45,952 nt of DNA, taken from assembly GCA_900321835.1 (NCBI GenBank), contig ONXQ01000005.1:1-45952 (forward strand), given 5' to 3'. The position numbers and the translations under genes are program-made. The notes beneath the pieces were generated by a model, which was not told where the DNA came from, made no database searches, and worked only from the letters and a program-made list of their open reading frames with translations. This stretch comes from an uncultured Prevotellaceae bacterium (lineage in GTDB: Bacteria > Bacteroidota > Bacteroidia > Bacteroidales > Bacteroidaceae). How positions within the stretch are numbered: position 1 is the first letter of the stretch; every line of letters starts with the position of its first letter. Positions 101 to 45,952 of this stretch are shown one piece after another.

Positions 101-148
101 GACGATTTTTTCCGAGCGCTCAGAAGTTTTCGTCCAAGCGCTTGCACG
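101..148. repeat. partial (2-unit) copy of the 22-bp-phased GAGCGCTC intergenic repeat family
   Basis: gacgattttttccGAGCGCTCagaagttttcgtccAAGCGCTTgcacg; cores at 114 and 136, exactly 22 bp apart. Confidence 0.8.
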
Positions 149-3352: not shown

Positions 3353-3398
3353 AAGGTCTGCGGGCCCGTCGCCGACGGTGTGCCCCGACTGTATGTTT

Positions 3399-3503
3399 GA
3401 GCGCTTGGACGAAAACGTCTGAGCGCTCAAACGTTTTCGTCTGAGCGCTCGGAAGATTTTTTCTGAGCGCTCAGACCTTTACGCGCGAGCGGGCGCACGT
3501 GGG
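3399..3503 (+). repeat. 22-bp-phased GAGCGCTC element, 4 units plus tail
   Basis: Cores start at 3399, 3421, 3443, 3465 (exact 22-bp period); tail cagacctttacgcgcgagcgggcgcacgtggg; lies between convergent genes. Confidence 0.92.
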
Positions 3504-7178: not shown

Positions 7179-7338
7179 CAAAGTTACGGATAAGTGAGAG
7201 CAATACAAAATGAAAATCAAAAAATTTTCATTTTTATTGCCGAACGGGAGTAATTTCGGCGTAGCCAAAGTTACGGATAAGTGAGAGCAATACAAAAAGA
7301 AAATCAAAAAAAATTCATTTTTATTGCCGAACGGGAGT
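7179..7338 (-). repeat. tandem duplication (87-bp period) of a promoter-box plus AT-rich hairpin module
   Basis: Copy 1 is 7179-7251 and copy 2 is 7266-7338: caaagttacggataagtgagaGCAATACAAAAnGAAAAT...ATTTTTATTGCcgaacgggagt. On the minus strand each copy reads hairpin, then 13 nt, then TAACTTTG. Confidence 0.85.
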
Positions 7339-7366: not shown

Positions 7367-7466
7367 GAGCGCTTGGAAAAAAACGTCTGAGCGCTCAGAC
7401 GAAAACGTCCGAGCGCTCGGACGAAAATTTCTGAGCGCTCAGACCTTTACGCGCACACGCGTGGGA
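7367..7466 (+). repeat. 22-bp-phased GAGCGCTC element, 4 units plus tail
   Basis: Cores at 7367, 7389, 7411, 7433; head gccacttgcGAGCGCTTGGaaaaaaacgtc; tail cagacctttacgcgcacacgcgtggg; sits between divergently transcribed genes. Confidence 0.92.
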
Positions 7467-7579
7467 AGAAAAAAACGGTGCCGCACATTTTTCGTACTTA
7501 ACCGTACCTGTGGCTGCGTTGAAGGTACTCCCGTACGGAAAAAACCACAATAAATTTGCTTTTTTCGCTCACTTAATCG

Positions 7580-7587
7580 TAACTTTG
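7580..7587 (+). promoter_or_regulatory. -7 promoter box TAACTTTG
   Basis: 25 nt upstream of ATG 7613. Confidence 0.55.
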
Positions 7588-7612
7588 CATCGAATTTCGA
7601 AAAAAAGGGAAC

Positions 7613-12875: not shown

Positions 12876-12906
12876 GCGAAAGCACACATTCTTGACTTAC
12901 ATTCCG

Positions 12907-12940
12907 AAGGTGTACCCCTCAAGGTACACCTTTTTTTTGT
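12907..12940 (+). terminator. rho-independent terminator
   Basis: AAGGTGTACC-cctcaa-GGTACACCTT followed by a T-run. Confidence 0.8.
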
Positions 12941-14001: not shown

Positions 14002-14105
14002 GAGCGCTCGAACGCGGACTTCCGAGCGCTTGGAAATTTTCGTCCGAGCGCTCAGACGTTTCTTTCTGAGCGCTCAGACCTTTACGCGCGCACGCGAGCG
14101 ACGGG
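14002..14105 (+). repeat. 22-bp-phased GAGCGCTC element, 4 units plus tail
   Basis: Cores at 14002, 14024, 14046, 14068; begins 5 nt after the antiporter stop; tail cagacctttacgcgcgcacgcgagcg. Confidence 0.92.
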
Positions 14106-14220
14106 ACCGACGGTGCTCCCGGAATCTGTCCGACACGGGGCAGCGGCGACAAAGGACACGAAACAGCCGCCTAAAAATGCTTTTTGTGGGAAAAAACGTG
14201 TCAATGAGAAAATAATTTCG

Positions 14221-14228
14221 TAAATTTG
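14221..14228 (+). promoter_or_regulatory. -7 promoter box TAAATTTG
   Basis: 42 nt upstream of ATG 14271. Confidence 0.5.
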
Positions 14229-15438: not shown

Positions 15439-18045
15439 ATGAAAAAACTCACAACCCTCGCAGCCGCACTGCTCATCGCACTCAGCGCCTCGGCCGTGCC
15501 TGCAAAACCCGTCAAGAAGACCGTCACCCTCACCGACGGCACCACAGTCACCGCCATCCTGCGCGGCGACGAACACCATCACAGCCTCGTCACCGCCGAC
15601 GGACGCGCCCTCAAGGAGGTGTCGGAAGGCATCTACGACTATAGCGACACCCAGGCCGAAAACGAGACGTGGAGCGCACTTCGCAACGCCAAAGCCAACC
15701 TGCGCCACCAAACCAGCCAGAAGCGACGCCAGGCCGGAAAGCCCCGCCGCGAATTCGGCGTTCCGGGCAAGGTGGTCGGCGAGAAGAGAGGACTTGTCAT
15801 CCTCGTCGAGTTCTCCGGCGCCTCAATGAAACACACACAGCAGGAGTTCGACCAGCAGTTCAACCAGGTCGGCTATTCGAAGAACCGCCACATAGGCTCC
15901 GTCCGCGACTATTTCAAGAAGCAGAGTTACGACCAACTCACCATCGACTTCGACGTCGTCGGACCCTATACGCTGGCGCATCCCATGTCCTACTACGGCA
16001 AGAACGCTTCGTTCACCTACAACGAAAACACCGGCATCATCACCTTCAAGGGCTGGAGTGAAAGTGGCGAAGACGTCAACGCCTTCGAAATGATCTACGA
16101 AGCCTGCCAGTCGGCCGACAAAGACGTGAATTTTGCCGACTACGACTGGGACGGCGACGGATACGTTGACCAGGTTTACGTCATCTACAACGGCTACGGC
16201 GAAGCCTCTGGGGCAGCCAGCACGACCATCTGGCCTCACGAATACGAACTTTCGATGTCGGCCTACTACCGGAACATGCCGTCGGGCTATCCCGACATGA
16301 CAAAGTTTGCCAACCTGACGCTCGACGGCGTGCATATCGACACCTACGCCTGCTCCAACGAACTCAGCGGAACGGCAGGCACGATGATGGACGGCATCGG
16401 CACCGCCTGCCACGAATTCACCCACTGCCTCGGCATTCCCGATTTCTATGACACGTCCTACAGCGGGAACTTCGGAATGGGCAATTGGGACCTCATGGAC
16501 CAGGGTTCGTACAATGGGCCTTCCGGCTACGAAGGATGCGTGCCAGCCGCCTACACGGCCTACGAGCGATGGTTCAGCGGATGGCTTGAGCCGGTCGAAC
16601 TCGACGAAGGTGCCAACGTCGCCGACATGGCTGCCATCACCGACAAGCCCGTCTCCTACGTCGTCTATAACCAAGGCAACCGCAACGAGTTCTACCTTCT
16701 GCAAAACATCCAGAAGACTTCCTGGAACCAGTATGCCGGAGGTCACGGAATGCTCGTCCAGCACATCTTCTACGACAAAGACATTTGGCAGGCCAACGAG
16801 CCCAACACCACCGGCAACAACAGCACGTCGGGCAACCAGTATCAGCGTTGCACCATCATTCCCGCCGACAACACCCGCAGCGAATACAACCTCGCCGGCG
16901 ACCCGTTCCCCGGCACATCCAAAAAGACAGCGCTGACCAACACCTCGATGCCCAGTGCAAGCCTGTACGTCTCCAACTCCAATGGTTCCAGACTCATGAA
17001 CCGCCCCATCGAGGACATCAAGGAGCAGAACGGCCTCATCTCCTTCACCTTCAACGGCGGAGCAAAGATTGACGCGCCCGTGGCCAACGAGGTGAAGGCC
17101 GACGACCTGACCGCCGACAGTTTCCGTGCCACATGGAGCGAAGTGTCGGAGGCAGCCTACTACAACGTTGAACTCACCGAATACGTCGAGGAGGAAGAGA
17201 CAACACCTGCTCCCGACGACCCACAGACCGTCACGCTGCTCCTCGACGAGGACTTCGCCGGCGTTTCGGCCCAGACCAACAGCAATGTCGATATCAGCGC
17301 CGACCTCGACCGATACCTGAACACGACAGGCTGGACAGGGTCGAAAGTCTATTCGGGCACCAACAATCCGGGTGGTGTGAAGATTGGTGCCAGCAAGACA
17401 GGCGGACGCCTCCAGACACCCCTGTTACAGGCGCCCCAGTCAAACGCCGTGACACTCTACCTGCGCTTCCAGGCCTACGGCACCGACGCAGTCGATTTCA
17501 CCGTCTCCTTCCTTTCGCAGACAGGCAATGTCATCACGACCAAAAACTACACGGCGAACACCGACGACGTGCTCACCGTCAGCATCGACCAGCCCTTCAG
17601 CGTGAAGTTTGAGACCGTGGCCAAGAAGCGCGTCTATCTCCTTGACGTCAAAGTGGCCGACGGCACCTACGACCGCAACGCCCTGCAGGACGGCGAAGGC
17701 ACGACGGACGACGACGACACGCCCAAGACCGTCGTGACGACCGTCCGTGTCGAAGACGCCACCGAGCACCTCTTCAGCGACCTCACCGCCAGCCAGTATT
17801 CCTACCGTGTGCAGGCTGTGGATGCCAGCGGTAACACCTCGGCGTGGAGCAACGTGGTCAGCGTCACCCTGCCCGAACCTCCCACCCACATCGCCGCCCC
17901 GACCGCGACCGACACCTTCGAGGTCTATACCCTCAGCGGCCTGCGCGTCAAGTCGGCTGCCAACGCCGCCACATGGCGCAACGGACTGCCACGCGGCACC
18001 TACATTCTCCGTTCGCAGCAAACGACGAAGAAGGCTGTGAAGTAA
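15439..18045 (+). CDS. M6-family (immune inhibitor A-like) metalloprotease with FN3-like domains and T9SS CTD
   Basis: Signal peptide; HEFTHCLGIPDFYD zinc motif; FRATWSEVSEAAYYNVEL and YSYRVQAVDASGNTSAWS FN3-like segments; C-terminal FEVYTLSGLRV...GTYILRSQQTTKKAVK. Confidence 0.8.
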   Translation: MKKLTTLAAALLIALSASAVPAKPVKKTVTLTDGTTVTAILRGDEHHHSLVTADGRALKEVSEGIYDYSDTQAENETWSALRNAKANLRHQTSQKRRQAGKPRREFGVPGKVVGEKRGLVILVEFSGASMKHTQQEFDQQFNQVGYSKNRHIGSVRDYFKKQSYDQLTIDFDVVGPYTLAHPMSYYGKNASFTYNENTGIITFKGWSESGEDVNAFEMIYEACQSADKDVNFADYDWDGDGYVDQVYVIYNGYGEASGAASTTIWPHEYELSMSAYYRNMPSGYPDMTKFANLTLDGVHIDTYACSNELSGTAGTMMDGIGTACHEFTHCLGIPDFYDTSYSGNFGMGNWDLMDQGSYNGPSGYEGCVPAAYTAYERWFSGWLEPVELDEGANVADMAAITDKPVSYVVYNQGNRNEFYLLQNIQKTSWNQYAGGHGMLVQHIFYDKDIWQANEPNTTGNNSTSGNQYQRCTIIPADNTRSEYNLAGDPFPGTSKKTALTNTSMPSASLYVSNSNGSRLMNRPIEDIKEQNGLISFTFNGGAKIDAPVANEVKADDLTADSFRATWSEVSEAAYYNVELTEYVEEEETTPAPDDPQTVTLLLDEDFAGVSAQTNSNVDISADLDRYLNTTGWTGSKVYSGTNNPGGVKIGASKTGGRLQTPLLQAPQSNAVTLYLRFQAYGTDAVDFTVSFLSQTGNVITTKNYTANTDDVLTVSIDQPFSVKFETVAKKRVYLLDVKVADGTYDRNALQDGEGTTDDDDTPKTVVTTVRVEDATEHLFSDLTASQYSYRVQAVDASGNTSAWSNVVSVTLPEPPTHIAAPTATDTFEVYTLSGLRVKSAANAATWRNGLPRGTYILRSQQTTKKAVK

Positions 18046-18055
18046 ATATAGGCCT

Positions 18056-18140
18056 GAGCGCTCGGACGAAAACGTCTGAGCGCTCAGAGATTTTCTTCCG
18101 AGCGCTCAGACGTTTTTTTCCAAGCGCACGGACTTCAAAA
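18056..18140 (-). repeat. 22-bp-phased GAGCGCTC element, reverse orientation, 4 units
   Basis: Cores at 18056, 18078, 18100, 18122 (the last is degenerate, AAGCGCAC). The head unit ...tttttttccAAGCGC is the reverse complement of GAGCGCTTGGaaaaaaa. Confidence 0.9.
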
Positions 18141-18900: not shown

Positions 18901-18973
18901 CCAAAATTTTAACAAATACTTGTCTTAGCGACAAGATTTTTCACTTTCAACTTTTCACTTATCACTTTCAACA

Positions 18974-20414: not shown

Positions 20415-20458
20415 ACACCGCAGTGCAACGGAATTTGCACTGCGGTGTATTTTTATTT
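20415..20458 (+). terminator. rho-independent terminator
   Basis: 14-bp perfect stem ACACCGCAGTGCAA-cggaat-TTGCACTGCGGTGT followed by atttttattt. Confidence 0.85.
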
Positions 20459-20461
20459 CGT

Positions 20462-20548
20462 CTGTGGACGAAATTTATTTCAACTGCGGACGAAATTATT
20501 TTCGTCTGCGGACGAAATTTTTTTCAACTGCGGACGAAATTTGGGGGC
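20462..20548. repeat. 4-unit tandem array, 22-bp period, CTGCGGACGAAAT variant
   Basis: Units start at 20462, 20484, 20506, 20528: ctg(t/c)ggacgaaatt(t/a)(a/t)tttc(aa/gt). Confidence 0.9.
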
Positions 20549-23638: not shown

Positions 23639-23697
23639 CAAAGTTAGTGTAAAAGGTGTGCAATACAAAATAAATTAACATATTTTATTTTTATTGC
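23639..23697 (-). promoter_or_regulatory. -7 box TAACTTTG preceded by a GCAATA...TATTGC AT-rich hairpin (third copy of the 7179-7338 module)
   Basis: Minus strand reads GCAATAAAAATAAAATAtgttaATTTATTTTGTATTGCacaccttttacacTAACTTTG. Confidence 0.6.
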
Positions 23698-23764: not shown

Positions 23765-23870
23765 CTTCGCGCGCACGCGTAAAGGTCTGAGCGCTCGGAA
23801 AGAAACGTCTGAGCGCTCGGAAGAAATCGTCTGAGCGCTCAGACGAAAATTTCCAAGCGCTCGGAAAGGC
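23765..23870 (-). repeat. 22-bp-phased GAGCGCTC element, reverse orientation, 4 units plus tail
   Basis: Cores at 23789, 23811, 23833, 23855. The reverse complement is nearly identical to the 14024-14105 copy apart from one extra unit. Confidence 0.92.
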
Positions 23871-26571: not shown

Positions 26572-26679
26572 GGCAAAAACACACCGCCAAGCACACTTTT
26601 TACAAAAAAAATGCACTTTCCGGGAAAATTTTTCCTTTTTCACTTTTCACTTTTCACTTTTCTTTGTATCTTTGCAACG

Positions 26680-26950
26680 CGAACAAAAAAGGCAACAGCG
26701 GTTGACCTGACACGCGAACAATATTCATACCCTTAAGCCGGGATAAAGGATCGATCGGGATACTCATCAAATTACAATCGAAAACCGAGAACGCTTTGCA
26801 TATCAATGGCGGGCCACGCCCTCCCTCGGGAAGGTAACCTTGAGTCGGTGGATTACAAAGATATGCGAGCACTCAAATCTTATCTGCTCGGAGTTTCATC
26901 ACATCTCCTCCCGGCTTTTCCCATAAAGGAGGCAGCACCGCTGCCTCCTT
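26680..26950 (+). ncRNA. candidate structured non-coding transcript upstream of tRNA-Ser (class not recognised)
   Basis: TATCTTTG -7 box at 26667-26674; no credible ORF; 9-bp long-range pairing AAGCCGGGA (26735-26743) with TCCCGGCTT (26909-26917); perfect 10-bp terminal hairpin AAGGAGGCAG-caccg-CTGCCTCCTT (26926-26950). Confidence 0.3.
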
Positions 26951-26986: not shown

Positions 26987-27073
26987 GGAAAGTTGCCGGA
27001 GTGGTCGATCGGGCCGCACTCGAAATGCGGTGACCGGGTAACTGGTCCGGGGGTTCGAATCCCTCACTTTCCG
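26987..27073 (+). tRNA. tRNA-Ser (anticodon CGA), long variable arm
   Basis: Acceptor GGAAAGT/ACTTTCC, D-arm GCCGGAGTGGTCGATCGGGC, anticodon stem-loop CCGCA-CTCGAAA-TGCGG, variable arm TGACCGGGTAACTGGTCCGG, T-arm GGGGTTCGAATCCC. Confidence 0.9.
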
Positions 27074-27121
27074 CAAGGAGAAGGGAGAGATGTCTGAAAG
27101 ACACTCCCTCTCTTTCCGCTG

Positions 27122-29502: not shown

Positions 29503-29566
29503 CCCACCCCACGCACCTGCTGAAGCCACCACTCGGGTCCGCCATCAGGACTTGCTTTCGACTTTT

Positions 29567-29631
29567 AAGTGCTTAAAAAAAAGTTTTAAGTGCATAAAAA
29601 TACATTTTCAAGTGCTTAGAAATTCATTTCA
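29567..29631. repeat. 3-unit tandem array, 21/22-bp period, AAGTGCTT variant
   Basis: Units at 29567, 29588, 29610: AAGTGCTTaaaaaaaagtttt / AAGTGCATaaaaatacattttc / AAGTGCTTagaaattcatttc. Confidence 0.85.
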
Positions 29632-29647
29632 ACCAAGACATAGAGAC

Positions 29648-31374
29648 ATGAAGACAGCAGTGATACAAGTGACAGAAGCCGGCGCACAGGTGGCGCAGGT
29701 GGTCTGTCAGGAAACAGGCGGAATGCTCGTTCCCCGCTCCGACCTCGGCCGGCACTGGGCCGACGTGGAGGCCGTCGTGTTCATCGGCGCAATGGGCATC
29801 TGTGTCCGCACCATTGCGCCCTTGCTGACGGACAAGCACACCGACCCCGCCGTCGTGTGCATCAGCAGCGACGGCAGCCATGTGATTTCCGTCGTTTCGG
29901 GGCACGTCGGCGGTGCCAACCAACTGGCCGGACAACTGGCCGCTGCCCTGCCCGGGGCCGAGGCCGTGGTCACGACCCAGAGTGACACACAAGGACTCTG
30001 GGCCCTCGACACGCTGGCACAGCGCTATGGCTGGACTGCCGAGGTGGAGGGTGCGACGATGAATGACGCCATCTTCCGCTTTGTCGGCAAAGAGCCTGTG
30101 GCACTGCTGATTGAGACGTGCGATGCAGGCAGCGACTATCTGCAGCGCACCTGTCCGCCACACGTTCGCCGCATCCAGTCGGAGAGCGAAGTGGATACAG
30201 CCAGCGACCGTCTGCTCATTGCCGTCACTCCGCGCCAGATTCACAGCAGCGTTCCCGTGCTCCAGTACGTTCCGAAGACGCTCTGCCTGGGCATCGGGCT
30301 GGCCCATCAGGCAGAACCTGCCGAGGCGATTCTCCGTCAAATCATGCAGTGTGTCGCCGACAGCGGATGGCTGTGGCAGGGTGTGCGCACCGTTGCGACC
30401 ATCGACGTGAAACGCGACGAACCCGTCGTGAAACTGCTGCAAAGTCAAGGCTTCGACGTTCAGTTCTACACGGCAGACCAACTCGCCGCTGTGCCTGTGC
30501 CCACGCCCAGCGATGTCGTCGCCAGCCATGTGGGGACACCGAGTGTGAGTGAGGCCGCAGCCATTCTTGCAGCCGACGGAGGCCCGCTGGTCGTCAGCAA
30601 GAAAAAAGGTGAAAAATTCACCGTTGCCGTGGCCTCTTTGCCGCTGATGCAGGAGGTGGGCAGTGGGCATGGCTTCATCGAAATTGTCGGAGCCGGCCCC
30701 GGCGATCCCGACCTCATCTCCGTGCGCGGCCGTCGAATGCTCGAACGTGCCGACCTCATCCTCTACGCAGGTAGTCTGGTACCACGCGAACTCACGCTGT
30801 GCGCCAAACCAGAGGCCGTGGTGCGTTCCTCCGCCTCGATGTCGCTGGAGGAACAGTGTGCGCTGATGAAGGAATATTACGACCGAGGCTGCTTCATCGT
30901 CCGTCTGCACACGGGCGACCCCTGCATCTTCGGTGCCATCCAGGAGCAGATGGCCTACTTCGACGCCCACCACATGCACTACCACATCACACCATACCCG
31001 AACGCTGTCAGACCATCATCCTGACGCGCGGCGAAGGCCGTACGCCCATGCCCGAACGCGAAAAACTCCATCTGCTGGCCCGCAGCCGCTCGACCATGTG
31101 CATCTTCCTCAGTGCTGCCATCGTCGATGACGTGCAGCAGCAACTCCTCGCCGAATACCCGCCTGAGACGCCTGTCGCCGCCTGCTACCATCTGACGTGG
31201 CCCGACCAGCGCATCTATCGGGGTCAACTCAAAGACCTGGCCAGCATCGTCCACGACCATCATCTCACACTGACCACCATGCTCGTGGTCGGCGATGCGA
31301 TTGACAACCGCCAGGGCCTCTCCGAACTCTATTCGGCACACTTTTCACACTTGTTCAGAAAAGCCAGCGAATGA
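29648..31374 (+). pseudogene. cbiGF: cbiG-cbiF fusion: cobalt-precorrin-5A hydrolase / precorrin-4 C11-methyltransferase, disrupted in the cbiF part
   Basis: CbiG part looks intact (ATG 29648, MKTAVIQVTEAG...). CbiF starts with IEIVGAGPGDPDLISVRG...RLHTGDPCIFGAIQEQ...MHYHITP, then stops. The continuation IPERCQTIILTRGEGRTPMPEREKL...TMLVVGD is in the frame of 30799. The PGVSSF...AAAA segment expected between them is absent (junction about 30992-30997). Confidence 0.7.
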
Positions 31375-33242
31375 TACTCCTCTTTGGTGGCACGACCGAA
31401 GGACGCAAGGCTGCAGAGGTGCTCGAAGAGGCCGGCAGCACGTTCTACTACTCGACCAAGACGGGCGAGCAGGACATCGCCCTGCACCACGGGCTGCGCA
31501 TCGACGGAGCGATGGATGCCGAGGCGATGCAACGTTTTTGTCAGGAACAGGAAATCCGCCTCATCATCGACGCCGCCCATCCCTTTGCGCAGCAGTTGCA
31601 CCAGACCATTGCCGACGTCGCCCAGCGCCTACGCCTTCCCGTCGTCCGCTACGAACGCATCTTTCCGCCGCGCGACGAACACTTCATCTGGATTGACCGC
31701 TACGAAGATTTGCGCACGCTGCGGCCTGCCACCGTTCTTGCCACAACCGGCGTACAGAGCATTTCGCACCTGAAACCCCTCGAGACCGCAGGCTTCCGCT
31801 TCCTGTACCGCATTTTGCCCCGCGAGAGTTCTGTGGCACTGGCAAAAGCGCAGGGTGCTGCCGACGACCAACTTTGCTACTATCACGACGACGAGGACGA
31901 AGTCGCCCTGCTCCGCAGGCTCCGTCCCGACATCCTCCTGGTGAAGGAAAGCGGTGAAAGCGGTGGTTTCAACAAAAAAACGCAAGCCGCTCGTTCACTG
32001 GGTATTACGGTTGTCGCGCTGAAACGCCCTGCAACGCCTTTCACCTTCCACTGCGTCAACGGTCCGCACGGACTTCGCCGCCGTGTCGAGCAGTTGCTAC
32101 CCGACTTTTTTTCCCTGCACAGCGGCCTGACCACAGGCACGTGTGCCACCGCAGCCGCCGTAGCAGCAACGATTCGTCTGACGCGGGGTGAAACACCCTC
32201 CCAGGTGCCTGTCATCCTGCCCGACGGCGAAACCATCTCCGTCGGCGTCGGCTATGGCAACGACTATGCTTTCTGCATCAAGGACGGCGGCGACGACCCC
32301 GACGTGACCGACGGGATTGAAATAAGGGCAAAGGTGGAGGCACAAGCCCCCCTCCACCTCCCCCCCGAAGGGGGAGGGCCTCAAAAACAGCCTGTAGATA
32401 AGGAATCCTCCCCACTCGGGGGGGAGTTAGAGGGGGGCCAGGTCTTTATCACTGGTGGCGAAGGCATCGGAACCATCACCCTCCCCGGCTTTGACTATCC
32501 CCCTGGTTCGCCAGCCATCAACCGTGTACCCCGGGAGATGATAATGACTAACTTAAAGGCACTCCCCTTATGTGGGAGAGATGGAGGGGGGCCGTTCACC
32601 ATCACCCTCTCCGTCCCCAACGGTGCAGAGATAGCCCGCCGCACGTTCAATCCGCGCCTGGGCATCGAGGGCGGCATCAGCATCATTGGGGTGAGCGGCA
32701 TTACGAAACCCTTCAGCGAAGAGGCCTTCGTCGCCTCCATCCGCAAATGTATGGAAGTGGCAAAGGCCAGTATGCCCGCCGAAGGCTGTCTGGTCATCAA
32801 CAGCGGCGCGAAGAGCGAGGCCTACGTCAAGGCGCGTTTTCCCGAACTGCCTGCACCCTGTTTCGTGCAGTATGGCAACTACATCGGTGCCACACTCCGC
32901 ATCGCGGCCGAACTCGCCATTCCCCGTGTCACGCTTTGCGTGATGCTGGGCAAGGCCGTCAAACTCGCTGCCGGCAACCTCGACACCCACAGCCGCCGCA
33001 CGACAATGGACGTCGGCTTTGTCCTCTCCATGCTCACCGAGGCAGGGTGCAGCGACGACGTCATCGCCGCAGCCCACGGTCTCACGCTGGCCCGCGACCT
33101 CTGGACCCTCCTGCCGCCCGACCGTCTCGAACCTTTTGCCCGCGTCGTCATCCGCCATTGTCACCACCATTGCGACCCGGTTTTGCCCGACGGCCAACTC
33201 GACATCCTGCTCATCGACGAGGAAGGACATATATACGCCTGA
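31371..33242 (+). CDS. cbiJD: cbiJ-cbiD fusion: cobalt-precorrin-6A reductase / cobalt-precorrin-5B C1-methyltransferase
   Basis: CbiJ: MILLFGGTTEGR, IIDAAHPFA, LVKESGESGG. CbiD: SGLTTGTCATAAAVAA, KDGGDDPDVT, PAINRVPREMI, FNPRLGIEGGISIIGVSGI. ATGA overlap with the preceding ORF. The frame is open but contains the inserted repeats listed below. Confidence 0.8.
   Translation: MILLFGGTTEGRKAAEVLEEAGSTFYYSTKTGEQDIALHHGLRIDGAMDAEAMQRFCQEQEIRLIIDAAHPFAQQLHQTIADVAQRLRLPVVRYERIFPPRDEHFIWIDRYEDLRTLRPATVLATTGVQSISHLKPLETAGFRFLYRILPRESSVALAKAQGAADDQLCYYHDDEDEVALLRRLRPDILLVKESGESGGFNKKTQAARSLGITVVALKRPATPFTFHCVNGPHGLRRRVEQLLPDFFSLHSGLTTGTCATAAAVAATIRLTRGETPSQVPVILPDGETISVGVGYGNDYAFCIKDGGDDPDVTDGIEIRAKVEAQAPLHLPPEGGGPQKQPVDKESSPLGGELEGGQVFITGGEGIGTITLPGFDYPPGSPAINRVPREMIMTNLKALPLCGRDGGGPFTITLSVPNGAEIARRTFNPRLGIEGGISIIGVSGITKPFSEEAFVASIRKCMEVAKASMPAEGCLVINSGAKSEAYVKARFPELPAPCFVQYGNYIGATLRIAAELAIPRVTLCVMLGKAVKLAAGNLDTHSRRTTMDVGFVLSMLTEAGCSDDVIAAAHGLTLARDLWTLLPPDRLEPFARVVIRHCHHHCDPVLPDGQLDILLIDEEGHIYA
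32347..32439 (+). repeat. in-frame GC-rich hairpin insertion inside cbiD
   Basis: ccCCTCCacCTCCCCCccgaaGGGGGAGGgcc tcaaaaacagcctgtagataaggaat CCTCCCCactcgGGGGGAGttagaggggggcc; encodes APLHLPPEGGGPQKQPVDKESSPLGGELEGG. The AT-rich centre is atypical for this CDS. Confidence 0.6.
32560..32593 (+). repeat. second copy of the CTCCCC...GGGAG...GAGGGGGGCC motif inside cbiD
   Basis: cACTCCCCttatgtGGGAGagatggaggggggcc resembles 32407-32439. It is preceded by rare-codon AT-rich DNA (atgataatgactaacttaaag). Confidence 0.45.
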
Positions 33243-33350
33243 GCGCTCAGAAATTTTCGTCTGAGCGCTCAGACGTTTTCCTCCGAGCGCTCAGACGTTT
33301 TCTTCCGAGCGCTCAGACGTTTTTTTCCAAGCGCTCAGATGTATATAGAA
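33238..33350 (-). repeat. 22-bp-phased GAGCGCTC element, reverse orientation, 5 units
   Basis: Cores at 33241, 33263, 33285, 33307, 33329. The first core overlaps the cbiJD stop codon (ccTGAgcgctc). Head ...tttttttccAAGCGCTCagatgtatatag. Confidence 0.92.
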
Positions 33351-33434: not shown

Positions 33435-33442
33435 TAACTTTG
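33435..33442 (+). promoter_or_regulatory. -7 promoter box TAACTTTG for the riboswitch-led operon
   Basis: ttcgTAACTTTGcag just upstream of the riboswitch. Confidence 0.6.
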
Positions 33443-33454
33443 CAGCGCAAAGAG

Positions 33455-33650
33455 AACAACGGTAGTGCCGCGCCGTCACGACGGCGGTGCGAAGCACGCA
33501 AGGGAATGCGGTGTGAATCCGCAGCTGTACCTGCAACTGTAATCCTCTTCTTTTAAGGCTGTCCATCCATGCCACTGACCCTCTGGGACGGGAAGGCGGA
33601 CAGACCGGGGAAAGCCAGGAGACCTGCCGTAAGAAACGAATCTCTTCCAA
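33455..33650 (+). promoter_or_regulatory. cobalamin (B12) riboswitch
   Basis: Conserved core AAGGGAATGCGGTGTGAATCCGCAGCTGTACCTGCAACTGTAA, GCCACTG (33571-33577) and B12 box AGCCAGGAGACCTGCC (33613-33628); about 50 nt upstream of the TBDT start. Confidence 0.9.
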
Positions 33651-36925: not shown

Positions 36926-36944
36926 GCGCCCCGGCGCTACTCGC

Positions 36945-37045
36945 GCGCGTATATATACGTCTGAGCGCTCGGACGAAACGCTCTGAGCGCTCAGACGAAA
37001 ACTTCCGAGCGCTCAGACGTTTTTTTCCAAGCGCTCGGAAACCGA
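36945..37045 (-). repeat. 22-bp-phased GAGCGCTC element, reverse orientation, 4 units
   Basis: Cores at 36963, 36985, 37007, 37029; left end is the palindrome CGTATATATACG (36948-36959); head ...tttttttccAAGCGCTCgg. Confidence 0.92.
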
Positions 37046-39738: not shown

Positions 39739-40755
39739 ATGCTCTACGGACACGGCGACGACACCTTCCGCTTCCCCCACCTGCGTGCCAACTTCAGTTC
39801 GAACATCTGCACAGAGGCCGACCTTGCCCCCCTCAAGGCGCATCTGGCCACACGGCTCTCCGCCATCGAGAACTATCCGGAGCCGGCAGCCGACTCGCTC
39901 GCTGCCTGCATCGCCCGGCTGCACGGCATCCAGCCCGACGAGGTGCTGGTGACCAACGGCGCCACCGATGCCATCTACCTCATTGCACAGGCTTTTGCCA
40001 CGGATGGTACCTATTTCTCGACCGACGAACCCACTTTCAGCGAATATGCCGACGCCTGCCTTTTGTTCGGATTGAAACCTCAGACAGACGCGGACTCTTC
40101 TGCAGCCGTTCGCTGGCTGTGCAACCCGAACAACCCCGACGGCCGCATCTACACGTCCGAGCAAGTGCGACGGGAGGCACAGCGCAGCACGTGGCTCGTC
40201 GTCGATCAGTCGTACGAAGACTACACCGCAGCCCCTCTGCTCACCGCTCGCGAGGCGCTCGGTGTGCCCAACCTGCTGCTGCTCCATTCGCTCACCAAGA
40301 GTTACGCCGTACCGGGGCTGCGCATCGGCTATGTCACTGCGCCGGCTCCGCTCATCGCCCGTCTCAAGTCCGTCAGCCGTCCGTGGGCCGTCAATGCCCT
40401 GGCGGTCGAGGCCGGGAAATGGCTGCTCAGCCACGATGTACGTGCCGTGCCCGACCTCGATGCCCTGTTGGCAGAGACCCAGCGGCTGGCCAACGCACTT
40501 TCGGAGGTGCCTCACCTCCACGTCAGCCCCACCGCCACGACCTTCATGCTCGTCTGCTGCGACACGTTCACGGCGGCCCAACTGAAGGAGCGGCTGGCCT
40601 CGGAACACGGTCTGCTCATCCGCGATGCCTCCAATTTCCCCACGCTCACTCCCCATCACTTCCGTGTGGCAACCCAGCGGCCCGACCAGAACGATGCACT
40701 TGTCGCTGCCCTGCGCACCCTTCTCTCCCCGTCTGCAGACGAACGAAAGTTCTGA
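39739..40755 (+). CDS. cobD: threonine-phosphate decarboxylase (class I/II aminotransferase fold)
   Basis: MLYGHGDD, NFSSN, YPEP, CNPNNPDG, HSLTKSYAVPGLRIGY (PLP lysine motif). Confidence 0.85.
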   Translation: MLYGHGDDTFRFPHLRANFSSNICTEADLAPLKAHLATRLSAIENYPEPAADSLAACIARLHGIQPDEVLVTNGATDAIYLIAQAFATDGTYFSTDEPTFSEYADACLLFGLKPQTDADSSAAVRWLCNPNNPDGRIYTSEQVRREAQRSTWLVVDQSYEDYTAAPLLTAREALGVPNLLLLHSLTKSYAVPGLRIGYVTAPAPLIARLKSVSRPWAVNALAVEAGKWLLSHDVRAVPDLDALLAETQRLANALSEVPHLHVSPTATTFMLVCCDTFTAAQLKERLASEHGLLIRDASNFPTLTPHHFRVATQRPDQNDALVAALRTLLSPSADERKF

Positions 40756-40820
40756 GTGCTTGAAAAAAAAGTTTTAAGTGCTTGAAAATTTACTTTTACG
40801 TGCTTGAAAGTTTGTTTTTA
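40754..40820. repeat. 3-unit tandem array, 22-bp period, (G/A)AGTGCTT variant
   Basis: Units at 40754, 40776, 40798: GAGTGCTTgaaaaaaaagtttt / AAGTGCTTgaaaatttactttt / ACGTGCTTgaaagtttgttttt; the first unit overlaps the cobD stop. Confidence 0.88.
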
Positions 40821-40833
40821 CCTACTTGTTTCG

Positions 40834-40841
40834 TAACTTTG
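40834..40841 (+). promoter_or_regulatory. -7 promoter box TAACTTTG
   Basis: 19 nt upstream of ATG 40861. Confidence 0.5.
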
Positions 40842-43772: not shown

Positions 43773-43865
43773 GAGCGCTTGGAAAAAAACGTCCGAGCGC
43801 TCGGACGTTTTCGTCTGAGCGCTCAGAGATTTTTTTCTGAGCGCTCAGCCCTATATACAGACTTT
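43773..43865 (+). repeat. 22-bp-phased GAGCGCTC element, 4 units
   Basis: Cores at 43773, 43795, 43817, 43839. The head gccacttgtccGAGCGCTTGGaaaaaaacgtc matches the 7367 copy. Tail cagccctatatacagac. Lies between convergent cobS and cbiB. Confidence 0.92.
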
Positions 43866-43866
43866 G

Positions 43867-44754: not shown

Positions 44755-45952
44755 GGCGCAGAATCTGGTAAATGCGTTGCAGGTCAACGTGCTGGCGGAC
44801 ATGGTCGGCCAGACGGTCGTATTGCTCCTGCTTGAATGCCTGATAATCAAAGGTGGAGACCTTGTCCGAGCGTTTTGCAGCATAGGGCTGGAGCAGGAAG
44901 TCCACGAAGGCGCGGTTGTCGAAGATGCCGTGCAGGTAGGTTCCCATGCACTGCGGACTGGCGTAGTATCCGTCTTCGCGTCCGTCGCTGAGGCGGAAAA
45001 GTGGAGAGGCAGGCTCATCGCCAAAGGGCTTCGTCACACCCATGTGGATTTCGTAGCCCGTGAGAAGAGCCTCGCCGTCCCCAGGCGAAAAGGCTGGGAA
45101 TGAAGAATGAAGAATGTCGGTTTCTCCTCCGGATGAAGAATAAGATTTACTTTCATTCTTCATTCTTAATTCTTCATTCTTCATGTCGTCGAAGGGAAGC
45201 CAACGGGCAGATACCTGGCGGGTAACTTTCTCGCCAGAAAGCGTAGTAGTGACTGGCAGAAGGCCCAAACCGGGAAGGCGTTCGGCATCGCCTTCGACAT
45301 GAAGCGGGTCGCACACCTCGACACCCAGCATCTGATAACCTCCGCAGATGCCCACCACTGTTTTTCCCTCGCGATGCGCCTCAACAATGGCCTGCGCCAT
45401 GCCGCTGCGGCGCAGATGGTAGAGGTCGTCGAGGGTCGATTTGCTCCCCGGCAGCACGACGATGTCGGCCTGCCGGAGGTCGTCGGGCGCTGCGGTGTAG
45501 AAGAGGTGGATGCGCGGATCCTGTTCCAGGGCATCGAAGTCGGTGAAGTTGGAGATGTGCTGAAGCATGACCACGGCGATGTTGATGCGTCCCTGCGCCG
45601 TCACCCTGGATTTCTGAGCCAAAGAAACACTGTCTTCCTCCTCGATGTGGATGTCTTTGAAATAGGGTATGACGCCCAGCACGGGGATGCCGCAAATCTT
45701 TTCCAACAGGCTGCGCCCCTCGTCGAAAAGGCGCATATCGCCACGGAATTTGTTGATAATGATGCCGCAGATGCGTCGGCGGTCGTCGTCGGGCAGCAGT
45801 GCGATGCTTCCATAAACCGAAGCAAACACGCCGCCACGGTCGATGTCGCCGACCAGAATGACACGTGCGTCGGCATGGCGGGCCATCGGCATATTCACGA
45901 TGTCGCTGTCGCGGAGGTTGAGTTCGCTGATGCTACCTGCTCCCTCCATGAC
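44747..45952 (-). CDS. cobQ: cobyric acid synthase, 5'-truncated by the window edge
   Basis: GAGSISELNLRDSDIVNM, VGDIDRGGVFAS, IINKFRGD, GATase part GICGGYQMLG, GYEIHMG, GTYLHGIFDN. The stop overlaps the cbiB start by 8 nt. Contains the inserted repeat listed below. Confidence 0.88.
   Translation of the reverse strand, partial: VMEGAGSISELNLRDSDIVNMPMARHADARVILVGDIDRGGVFASVYGSIALLPDDDRRRICGIIINKFRGDMRLFDEGRSLLEKICGIPVLGVIPYFKDIHIEEEDSVSLAQKSRVTAQGRINIAVVMLQHISNFTDFDALEQDPRIHLFYTAAPDDLRQADIVVLPGSKSTLDDLYHLRRSGMAQAIVEAHREGKTVVGICGGYQMLGVEVCDPLHVEGDAERLPGLGLLPVTTTLSGEKVTRQVSARWLPFDDMKNEELRMKNESKSYSSSGGETDILHSSFPAFSPGDGEALLTGYEIHMGVTKPFGDEPASPLFRLSDGREDGYYASPQCMGTYLHGIFDNRAFVDFLLQPYAAKRSDKVSTFDYQAFKQEQYDRLADHVRQHVDLQRIYQILRHD
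45098..45184. repeat. in-frame AT-rich heptamer-palindrome insertion inside cobQ
   Basis: GAATGAAGAATGAAGAATG (45098-45116) ... CATTCTTCATTCTTAATTCTTCATTCTTCAT (45154-45184). Translated on the minus strand as ...DDMKNEELRMKNESKSYSSSGGETDILHSSF... Confidence 0.8.

Follow-up and report, generated by a model that had tools for sequence, protein, structure and literature searches.

The stretch of DNA analysed here, referred to as the window (45,952 bp; uncultured Prevotellaceae bacterium, GenBank assembly GCA_900321835.1, contig ONXQ01000005.1), carries nine intergenic arrays of the 8-bp palindrome GAGCGCTC, repeated in units of exactly 22 bp. The arrays could be assigned with high confidence (probability approximately 0.85) to a lineage-specific family of small dispersed extragenic palindromic repeats, similar to the repetitive extragenic palindromic (REP) sequences and bacterial interspersed mosaic elements (BIMEs) or to transposable elements of the miniature inverted-repeat type (MITEs). 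The element family is real and is undescribed in the searchable literature, and it belongs to a known class, the extragenic palindromic repeats. Judging from sequence features, the elements may function as hairpin/U-tract terminators, attenuators or 3'-end protectors (probability approximately 0.5). The transcribed module would fold into one or two long GC-rich hairpins flanked by U-runs, which would terminate or attenuate read-through at gene ends, active on a single strand where the genes are co-directional and on both where they are convergent, and the stable 3' hairpin left behind would protect the upstream mRNA. The family may spread or be homogenised by a copy mechanism that produces no target-site duplication, and the GAGCGCTC family appears to have replaced an older sister family, based on CCAAGYRCTTGG, at many of the same sites. 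Both the termination or stabilisation in vivo and the copying mechanism are what we infer. The surprising points are a lattice of 22 bp (and 7 bp) shared across the clade and the replacement, in place, of one palindrome family by another.

The gene map of the window was obtained from third-codon-position GC content and Pfam, and approximately 11% of the sequence was non-coding. Exact matches to GAGCGCTC numbered 27, compared to 1.66 ± 1.2 expected from 100 dinucleotide shuffles (largest value 5). The nine arrays held 26 of these cores, while the remaining one (42860) was present within a cobT-like (DBI_PRT) coding sequence. The core-to-core distance was exactly 22 bp throughout all arrays. Tandem Repeats Finder called the period of 22 at eight of the nine sites; the array at 14002 was uncalled, and its phase was taken from the core coordinates. 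All nine arrays were intergenic, which, given the non-coding fraction of the window, would occur by chance with a probability of about 2e-9. They fill roughly a sixth of the non-coding DNA in the window and occupy nine of approximately 21 gaps between genes, or about one per 5 kb. An nhmmer profile built from ten copies of the element did not find further copies in the window. A preliminary description of this DNA had claimed a dense, dispersed and strictly phased repeat family at nine sites and had named a lack of intergenic enrichment in a genome-wide scan as a refutation. All nine sites were present, the family and its exact phase were upheld by the core coordinates and by Tandem Repeats Finder (8/9 sites), the enrichment was evident within the window from the 26 of 27 cores in intergenic arrays, and the palindrome quoted there, gacgaaaacgtctgagcgctcaaacgttttcgtc, could be located at 3409-3442. 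Its account of phased palindromic units was correct but missed a defined head and tail, and hence the orientation of the element. The copy at 18056 needed correction to three exact cores and a degenerate head, AAGCGCAC, and the list of sites omitted three more 22-bp arrays with other cores, at 20452, 29563 and 40746.

The nine elements of the window were as follows, with the strand indicating head-to-tail orientation.

101..143, minus strand: partial element with cores at 114-121 (GAGCGCTC) and 136-143 (AAGCGCTT, head) and a T-rich half spacer; a canonical hairpin+T terminator (70-99) and a -7 promoter box (165-172) flank it on opposite sides.
3399..3493, plus strand: full element with head, three cores and tail AGACCTTTACGCGCG, between a convergent Sel1-repeat gene (stop 3352) and trpS (stop 3610).
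7367..7461, plus strand: full element between divergent promoters, with -7 boxes at 7179/7266 (minus strand) and 7551/7580 (plus strand).
14002..14111, plus strand: full element with an extra unit before the head, beginning 4 nt past the stop of a Na/Ca-exchanger gene; next -7 box at 14221.
18039..18129, minus strand: full element with three exact cores, the degenerate head and a TATAT-type tail, between a convergent M6-peptidase gene (stop 18045) and a PNP gene (stop 18210).
23765..23862, minus strand: full element 20 nt past the mazG stop (minus strand) and about 120 nt before the next -7 box (23639-23646, minus strand).
33223..33348, minus strand: longest element, with five cores, the first of which is overlapped by the cbiJD stop TGA (33240-33242); TATATAC-type inverted repeats on both sides, spacers all T-type on the sense strand, and a promoter at 33435 followed by a cobalamin riboswitch.
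36941..37036, minus strand: full element in the gap from the cbiK stop (36925) to the start (37053) of the second TonB-dependent receptor gene.
43773..43866, plus strand: full element of A7 - hairpin - T7 symmetry, flanked by the convergent genes cobS (stop 43711) and cobD-like (stop 43867).

Analysis of all copies revealed that each array is an oriented, bounded module of approximately 95-110 bp, consisting of head, internal units and tail, rather than an open-ended satellite. The repeat unit comprised the 8-bp palindrome and a 14-bp quasi-palindromic spacer with a central A/T tract, with the consensus GAGCGCTC-AGACG-TTTT-CGTCC. The head was GAGCGCTT with either GGAAAAAAACGTCY or GGAAATTTTCGTCY after it; next came two or three internal units (four in one copy) of GAGCGCTC + RGAMR-WWWW-YKTCY, and the final core and tail read AGACCTTTACGCGCG(C) in five window or related copy types and AGRCSTATATA(C) in four. 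The orientation was plus at 3399, 7367, 14002 and 43773, and minus at 101, 18056, 23765, 33238 and 36945. A census of 12 elements (nine from the window and three from related contigs) gave 35 GAGCGCTC cores and 12 variants differing by one or two bases. These variants formed the head unit of 11 elements (core two of four at 14002), and in the partial copy at 101-148 they formed both cores. The information content was near-maximal over the core and spacer positions 2-3 and 12-13, so that the core and its TC./.GA flanks were nearly invariant while the spacer interior was free within an A/T-rich theme. Since each core is its own complement, pairing is possible between any two of them on either strand.

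The boundaries of the element could be determined from two copies in the related contig L126, which were 99% identical from TGCACATC through GCGTGAA and had unrelated flanks, thereby delimiting an element of approximately 103 bp. Target-site duplication could not be detected at the L126 copies or at the cbiK junction. Inverted TATATAC(R)YCY flanks were present at the 33238 copy and at L141 17798; beyond the 33238 copy no clear terminal inverted repeats were found, and there was no match to a known insertion sequence. Alternating purine-pyrimidine runs (ACGCGCGCGT, TATATATACGCGCGCG) were also observed in the tails at 3473-3493, 7441-7461, 14076-14100, 23765-23788 and 36941-36962, and such runs are potentially Z-DNA- or cruciform-prone.

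Three arrays (3399, 18056, 43773) were located between convergent genes, four (14002, 23765, 33238, 36945) between co-directional genes, one (7367) between divergent genes, and one (101-143) at the window edge. The nearest stop codon was 0-61 nt away for seven arrays, and 7367 was the sole copy away from a stop codon. The motif TAnnTTTG is the Bacteroidetes -7 promoter box; it occurred 27 times in the window against 7.9 expected. The arrays at 14002, 23765 and 33238 fall between a stop codon and the next such box, while the copy at 36945 was considered intra-operonic, since no promoter box precedes the TonB-dependent receptor gene. As a separate observation, a -7-like box, TATGTTTG (3392-3399), abuts the head core of the 3399 element, and the head core of the partial copy (AAGCGCTTG, 136-172 region) supplies a TTG whose distance from the -7 box at 165 is that of the -33 position. 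Based on these sequences, element heads may at times contribute promoter parts.

Folding of the elements on both strands produced one or two long near-perfect hairpins with energies from -46 to -70 kcal/mol and z values from -3 to -12 against shuffles. Most of the strongest hairpin+T matches in the window came from the elements. They accounted for about half of the long-stem (>=11 pairs) hairpin+T matches and for the two top-ranked ones (18054, 3393, 7418, 33239, 43768/43795), and a terminator consensus scan flagged six of the eight full elements. Array-free gene ends carried canonical terminators (9013, 12906, 20415, 39160). The 3'-most spacer was T-rich on every one of the 12 strands leading into an element from a stop codon. 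Between convergent genes, the order of A-tract, hairpin and T-tract could be observed on both strands. Between co-directional genes, T-runs were present on the sense strand in five of six family members (one neutral) and in all five sister-family arrays. The sense-strand T polarity was the same for elements read head-to-tail (14002, 23765, L126) and tail-to-head (33238), which shows that tract polarity is uncoupled from element orientation and coupled to transcription. Taken over all arrays, the tracking of transcription direction by T-tract polarity is suggestive and falls short of proof.

Several observations weigh against a terminator or protector function. The polarity statistic was derived from approximately ten partly dependent arrays (p of the order of 0.001-0.03). 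The U-runs often lie 5 nt off the stem base or are pulled into the stem in the minimum-energy fold, and the elements are thus not textbook intrinsic terminators. Termination would be needless for the intra-operonic copy at 36941-37036 and for the 7367 copy between divergent promoters. The core-flanking R/Y positions did not covary (T|A 15, T|G 6, C|G 4, C|A 9), and the sense strands were dominated by C.A mismatches rather than G.U wobbles, which indicates that RNA pairing is not the sole constraint. Some other Bacteroidota (L095, L081) have 22-bp GAGCGCTC arrays without any T-runs. Finally, a hairpin model does not explain the fixed 22-bp period across unrelated units. An extra base pair at the core-flanking R/Y positions was considered and was unsupported, as the tally showed no association. 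A strand test of wobbles versus mismatches gave mixed results (6:2 in favour in the sister family, against in the GAGCGCTC family) and was not used as evidence.

The distribution of the family among relatives was narrow. The window protein TrpS was 98-94% identical to proteins of metagenome-assembled genomes (MAGs) labelled Bacteroidaceae or Bacteroidales, and GAGCGCTC was absent from the 18-21 kb loci of the relatives with 94-98% identical TrpS. The nhmmer search detected the family in the window and in the loci L140, L124 and L126 only, together with a diverged relative in L129. A family-specific metagenome scan added just three more copies, in L124 and L126, and the diverged array in L129, a 42% GC human-gut contig. 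L140 is near-conspecific (cbiK 98.3% nucleotide identity) and carried the same element after cbiK, with 82 of 86 bases identical and all four changes outside the cores; the spacers therefore evolve somewhat faster than the adjoining gene (95.3% versus 98.3% identity). The contig of L140 ends inside the repeat.

The sister MAG GCA_024684455.1 (L121, L141) was syntenic with most of the window and was without GAGCGCTC, while CCAAGYRCTTGG-based 22-bp arrays were found at four orthologous sites, namely the Na/Ca-exchanger stop, the cbiD stop, the cobS/cobD junction and upstream of cbiG. The ortholog of the 14002 site in L121 was a CCAAGTGCTTAG 22-bp array. In L141, the orthologs of the 43773 and 29563 sites had four CCAAGYRCTTGG units and four CCAAGTGCTTAG units, respectively, and the 40746 array was missing at its orthologous site. 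The cbiK/btuB2 junction contained four GAGCGCTC units in the window and L140, four CCAAGTACTTGG units with the same flank start in L142, and was empty in L141, L143 and L144. Both families could also be found in one genome: the window keeps two decaying AAGTGCTT arrays (29563, 40746), and L126 has both. The two families have in common the head core (AAGCGCTT when read from the opposite strand), a T-rich spacer at the head and flanks of the TATATAC type. The central pyrimidine-purine (YR) step of the sister core varies freely, and the difference between the families is symmetric (AAG..CTT vs GAG..CTC). From this comparison, GAGCGCTC would have arisen from the AAG..CTT family via symmetric changes before spreading over it or taking its place. 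A transposase was found neither in the window nor in approximately 300 kb of related loci.

Comparison with databases did not identify a named family. Against the whole window at gathering thresholds, Rfam matched only the Bacteroidales-1 (6S-like) RNA (26739-26922, 133 bits), the cobalamin riboswitch (33465-33645, upstream of the TonB-dependent receptor/cbiK operon) and a tRNA, identified as tRNA-Ser(CGA) at 26987-27074, all outside the arrays. For the element itself at E <= 10, only sub-threshold generic or miRNA-like hairpin matches were obtained. BLAST of PLSDB plasmids and GenBank phages gave no match, and the family-specific pattern had zero matches in IMG/VR. The earlier statement that no named REP/BIME/MITE family could be recognised thus agrees with the searches of Rfam, PLSDB, GenBank phages, IMG/VR and the searchable literature. 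Eight IMG/VR contigs with three cores (L132-L139) were rejected as a coding coincidence, all within one phage open reading frame. This reading frame (L137 9307-10200, minus strand), with an N-terminus like the terminase small subunit, contains GGAGCGCTCC three times at exactly 22 bp, conserved in the eight viral contigs, which is odd for a spacing that is not a multiple of three.

REP/BIMEs of Enterobacteriaceae and Pseudomonas are similar in being short, clustered extragenic palindromes of alternating polarity at a density of hundreds per genome. The E. coli BIMEs occur about once per 8 kb, and REP doublets forming hairpins (REPINs) are mobilised by REP-associated tyrosine transposases (RAYTs). 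As in REP/BIMEs, the present arrays were extragenic, between convergent or co-directional genes, near or over stop codons and sometimes intra-operonic, had a species-specific sequence with some sites common to related species, and lacked target-site duplication. The roles proposed for REP/BIMEs include termination, mRNA 3' protection and binding of gyrase or IHF (PMC3733652, and general knowledge). In contrast to REP/BIMEs, the conserved part here is an 8-bp perfect palindrome without its own loop, the units adjoin head-to-tail on a strict 22-bp lattice where REP/BIMEs have variable linkers, and CGTC is base-paired instead of forming an unpaired terminal tag. A GTAG-type REP was rejected, as the unit is TCY-GAGCGCTC-RGA with an A/T tract and its ends are without GTAG.

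The closest published element was BrickBuilt, a minisatellite-MITE of Porphyromonas gingivalis interpreted as a MITE, segments of which have bidirectional promoter activity (Klein et al. 2015, PMC4596501). BrickBuilt belongs to the same order, is strictly intergenic, and has tandem units of near-equal length (23 nt), a distinct leader and tail, and predicted long stem-loops (PMC4596501). It is likewise species-restricted, with strain-variable unit number, filled and empty sites, and no Rfam match. However, its 23-nt unit AGACCATAGTATCCTCTCATATG is non-palindromic and has no sequence similarity to the present one. It also has up to 23 units, leaders and tails of up to approximately 300 nt, IS5-like 12-bp terminal inverted repeats and target duplications of 2-5 bp, and its 19 copies per 2.3 Mb are about 25 times sparser. 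The tail AGACCTTTACG shares eight consecutive bases with the BrickBuilt terminal repeat GAGACCTTTGCA, at one end only and in 7 of 12 copies, which is a lead and not a match. Membership in BrickBuilt was ruled out by the palindromic unit of exactly 22 bp and its unrelated sequence.

The CGTC-tagged REP superfamily, including Neisseria dRS3 (Di Nocera et al. 2013, PMC3733652), also has CGTC beside a short palindrome, is reported in Bacteroidetes near the 3' ends of genes, and is not associated with transposase genes (PMC3733652). Their defining features are a terminal CGTC that stays unpaired, a stem of 8-9 bp starting from A/T pairs, a 4-5 nt loop and a CCA tail, mostly in head-to-head dimers (PMC3733652). 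Assignment to this superfamily was rejected, as the CGTC here is paired to GACG, either across the core or across the A/T tract, the stems open with TGAGC, the CCA tail is missing and the units are tandem. The Neisseria Correia elements and paired DNA-uptake sequences are similarly dense small repeats at gene ends which form long duplex transcript hairpins. They were shown to terminate transcription, to undergo RNase III processing or to carry promoters. Correia elements differ in their length of 100-155 bp, 26-bp terminal inverted repeats, TA duplication, absence of an internal tandem lattice, unrelated sequence and origin from another phylum. Among the generic MITE features, filled and empty sites and discrete boundaries were seen, while target duplication was not found. 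The features of an intrinsic terminator, namely a GC-rich hairpin and a U-run on the transcribed strand past the stop, were present with an imperfect fit. A CRISPR array was rejected, as the conserved part is just 8 bp and the 14-bp spacers are variants of one consensus. A plasmid or phage iteron or a partition centromere was rejected on the location of nine arrays amid chromosomal housekeeping genes, the lack of a rep or par gene and the absence of plasmid, phage or viral matches, and an integron attC site on anatomy and housekeeping gene context.

The 22-bp period was not confined to the GAGCGCTC family. Three further arrays of this period were present in the window.

20452..20542: related array of four units, TTTCGTCTGCGGACGAAA palindrome with a 4-nt linker, between convergent genes and right after a canonical terminator.
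29563..29629: older-type array of three units, AAGTGCTT core with AT-rich spacers, 19 nt upstream of the cbiG start.
40746..40828: older-type decaying array, AAGTGCTT core, running into a -33/-7 promoter at 40834.

A 22-bp array of any family was thus present in approximately 12 of about 21 intergenic regions longer than 40 bp. Among the tandem arrays of the clade (217 kb, de-duplicated), the period was 22 in 19 arrays, 7 in 18, 21 in four and 44 in one, and none had a period of 13, 15-18, 20 or 23-32. In 809 kb of control sequence from other bacteria, the periods were broad and mostly multiples of three; period 22 occurred in 2 of approximately 270 arrays, both from loci that had been picked by our own core pattern. 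The period was kept by unrelated units: TTTCGTCTGCGGACGAAA (window 20452), AAGTGCGGCACTT (L144), GTAAAACnnnGTTTTAC and AGATTCTAGGCACTTCGTCAAG (L143), and AAGGTGTACACCTT (Candidatus (Ca.) Colivivens). The palindrome length (8-18 bp) and the linker length (4-14 bp) trade off so that their sum stays at 22. In Ca. Colivivens, two palindromes (AAGGTGTACACCTT, CGAGCGCTCG) occur in one continuous lattice with their dyads in register. A variable-gap three-core scan of genomes, in which the matches listed were mostly chance ones from high-GC Actinomycetota and Myxococcota, gave among those matches five other Bacteroidota genomes with 22-bp GAGCGCTC arrays (one at 21/22) and different spacers. The carriers include Ca. 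Colivivens, Bacteroides sp. 51, a Prevotellaceae MAG (21/22) and Sphingobacterium, and the arrays were again downstream of housekeeping genes. The idea in the preliminary description that the phase matters was supported by the conservation of period 22 across the clade. The phasing coherence of the A/T tracts was only moderate (0.2-0.7) at 10.5 bp per turn and better (0.65-0.92) at 11.0 in a crude calculation.

Period 7 was the second sharp peak in the tandem-repeat spectrum of the clade. The heptamer repeats (TTTTCAC, TTCATTC, ATTGACC x9, CATCACT x15, ATTAAGC x13) often stood just before -7 promoter boxes, and the gap between the Sel1-repeat gene and trpS held (ATTGACC)9 in L121 versus the GAGCGCTC element in the window. 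The heptamer sites were as follows.

Window: 18938-18968, 26629-26662 and 45152-45184.
L121: 10996-11061.
L143: 14074-14174.
L144: 13305-13398.

The period and the core are the features most favourable to an explanation at the DNA level, in which a dimeric protein (a repeat-binding factor, a nucleoid-associated protein or DNA gyrase) would sit on each core, two helical turns apart, on one face of moderately curved DNA. BIME-2 of E. coli binds DNA gyrase. Co-evolution of the core sequence with such a protein would account for family-specific cores. The maintenance of 22 bp across sequence-unrelated arrays while palindrome and linker lengths trade off, the common register of the two Ca. Colivivens palindromes, and the dominance of periods 22 and 7 in the clade and not in the 809 kb of control loci all argue for it. 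Further points in its favour are the almost invariant core beside drifting spacers, the symmetric difference between families with a free central YR in the sister core, the independent variation of the flanking R/Y, as in tolerated half-site transitions, the five Bacteroidota genomes among the matches listed with GAGCGCTC at 22 bp (one 21/22) and different spacers, and A/T tracts in phase at 11 bp per turn (coherence 0.65-0.92). Nevertheless, no candidate protein is known or encoded beside the arrays, where the flanking genes are unrelated housekeeping genes, and a symmetric DNA-binding model does not predict a T-tract polarity matched to transcription. For a hairpin with a GNNC loop, symmetric changes in the core and an unconstrained central YR would be expected just as much, and a period inherited by unit duplication requires no selection. 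A protein lattice would best explain the period and the core invariance, but is unlikely as the account of the arrays as a whole. The preliminary description had held that a protein array fits at least as well as a terminator. The phase lends that idea support, while T polarity, hairpin+T ranking, stop-to-promoter placement and the only moderate A/T-tract coherence at 10.5 bp per turn lean towards the RNA level. An extended form, in which the 22-bp lattice is itself functional as a conserved Bacteroidota system, with a dimeric DNA- (or RNA-hairpin-) binding factor reading short palindromes exactly two turns apart at gene ends and forming nucleoprotein insulators between transcription units, was regarded as quite improbable. 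If true, co-evolution of core and factor would explain the family replacement in place, the shared lattices and the recurrence of GAGCGCTC from Sphingobacterium to gut Bacteroidales.

The arrays could instead be purely selfish or neutral repeats, either a REPIN- or MITE-like non-autonomous element or a slippage-prone minisatellite, which gather downstream of genes and have no host function, their palindromy and period being properties of the founder and its transposase. Consistent with this are the discrete boundaries and near-identical copies at unrelated loci, the filled and empty orthologous sites, the strict lineage restriction (no GAGCGCTC in the 18-21 kb loci of the TrpS 94-98% identical relatives), the family turnover with decaying older arrays at 29563 and 40746, the somewhat faster evolution of spacers than of the neighbouring gene (95.3% vs 98.3%), and the interpretation of BrickBuilt, the closest published analogue, as a MITE (PMC4596501). 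However, there was no target-site duplication, no clear terminal inverted repeat save at 33238 and no transposase in approximately 300 kb of related loci. The T-tract polarity tracks transcription whatever the element orientation, and this independence is suggestive of selection acting once an element has inserted. Diverged genomes carry arrays at the same sites, and 22-bp arrays in about half of the intergenic regions would be a heavy junk load for an 89% coding genome. The absence of any host function is doubtful. A promoter-associated or regulatory array, in the form of upstream activating sites, UP-like curved DNA or, as has been suggested for BrickBuilt, mobile promoters, appears very improbable. 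It would fit the 40746 array, which leads directly into a -33/-7 promoter, the head of 101-143, which places a TTG 19-21 nt ahead of the -7 box at 165, the 7367 copy, which lies approximately 100 bp upstream of two divergent promoters, and the bidirectional promoter activity of BrickBuilt (PMC4596501). Nonetheless, no complete GAGCGCTC element has a TAnnTTTG box, three of the elements lie between convergent stops where a promoter is needless, one overlaps a stop codon, and the distance to the downstream promoter varies from 17 to 120 nt. These readings are not mutually exclusive. The E. coli REP/BIMEs combine termination or stabilisation, protein binding and selfish-repeat character.

If the density in the window holds genome-wide, the family would amount to several hundred copies and roughly a sixth of the non-coding DNA and, together with related arrays, would be present in about half of all intergenic regions. 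The arrays would then shape transcript ends, operon partition and the breaks of short-read assemblies, as seen in the L140 contig that ends within an element. Bacteroidales are central gut and rumen organisms for which terminators and the biology of 3' ends have been poorly mapped. A hairpin/U-tract element that is modular and adaptable in orientation would suit Bacteroides engineering as a terminator part. Two sister families at the same sites, one replacing the other, present a tractable case of bacterial repeat turnover, and the fixed 22-bp period (second peak at 7 bp) across unrelated sequences is addressable by existing Bacteroides genetics.

Further observations were made in the same loci. 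The composite array of Ca. Colivivens caballi (L006 4299-4443, L053 7613-7742) consists of four AAGGTGTACACCTT units followed by three CGAGCGCTCG units and occurs in opposite orientation at the two loci. The canonical terminator at 12906-12933, after a gene of 988 amino acids, has the stems AAGGTGTAC / GTACACCTT, which correspond to the Colivivens array palindrome with a loop inserted. This similarity hints that array palindromes may be related to ordinary terminator stems.

An 87-bp tandem duplication in the window (7179-7338) carries the -7 box TAACTTTG (minus strand) and a conserved leader, CTCACTTATCCGTAACTTTG. Similar promoter-leader modules of approximately 75-87 bp, some of them duplicated, were found upstream of unrelated genes of the sister MAG (L121 4944-5131, 9683-10000 and 19778-19991; L141 approximately 7470-7610), and this module may be a second dispersed, promoter-carrying repeat. 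The window had a GC content of 58% and contained a cob operon. The cbiG-cbiH fusion (592 amino acids in L141) is split in the window into overlapping reading frames at 29552-31024 and 30799-31374 (region 29648-31374) with a frameshift near 31000, which is either a pseudogene or a sequencing error.

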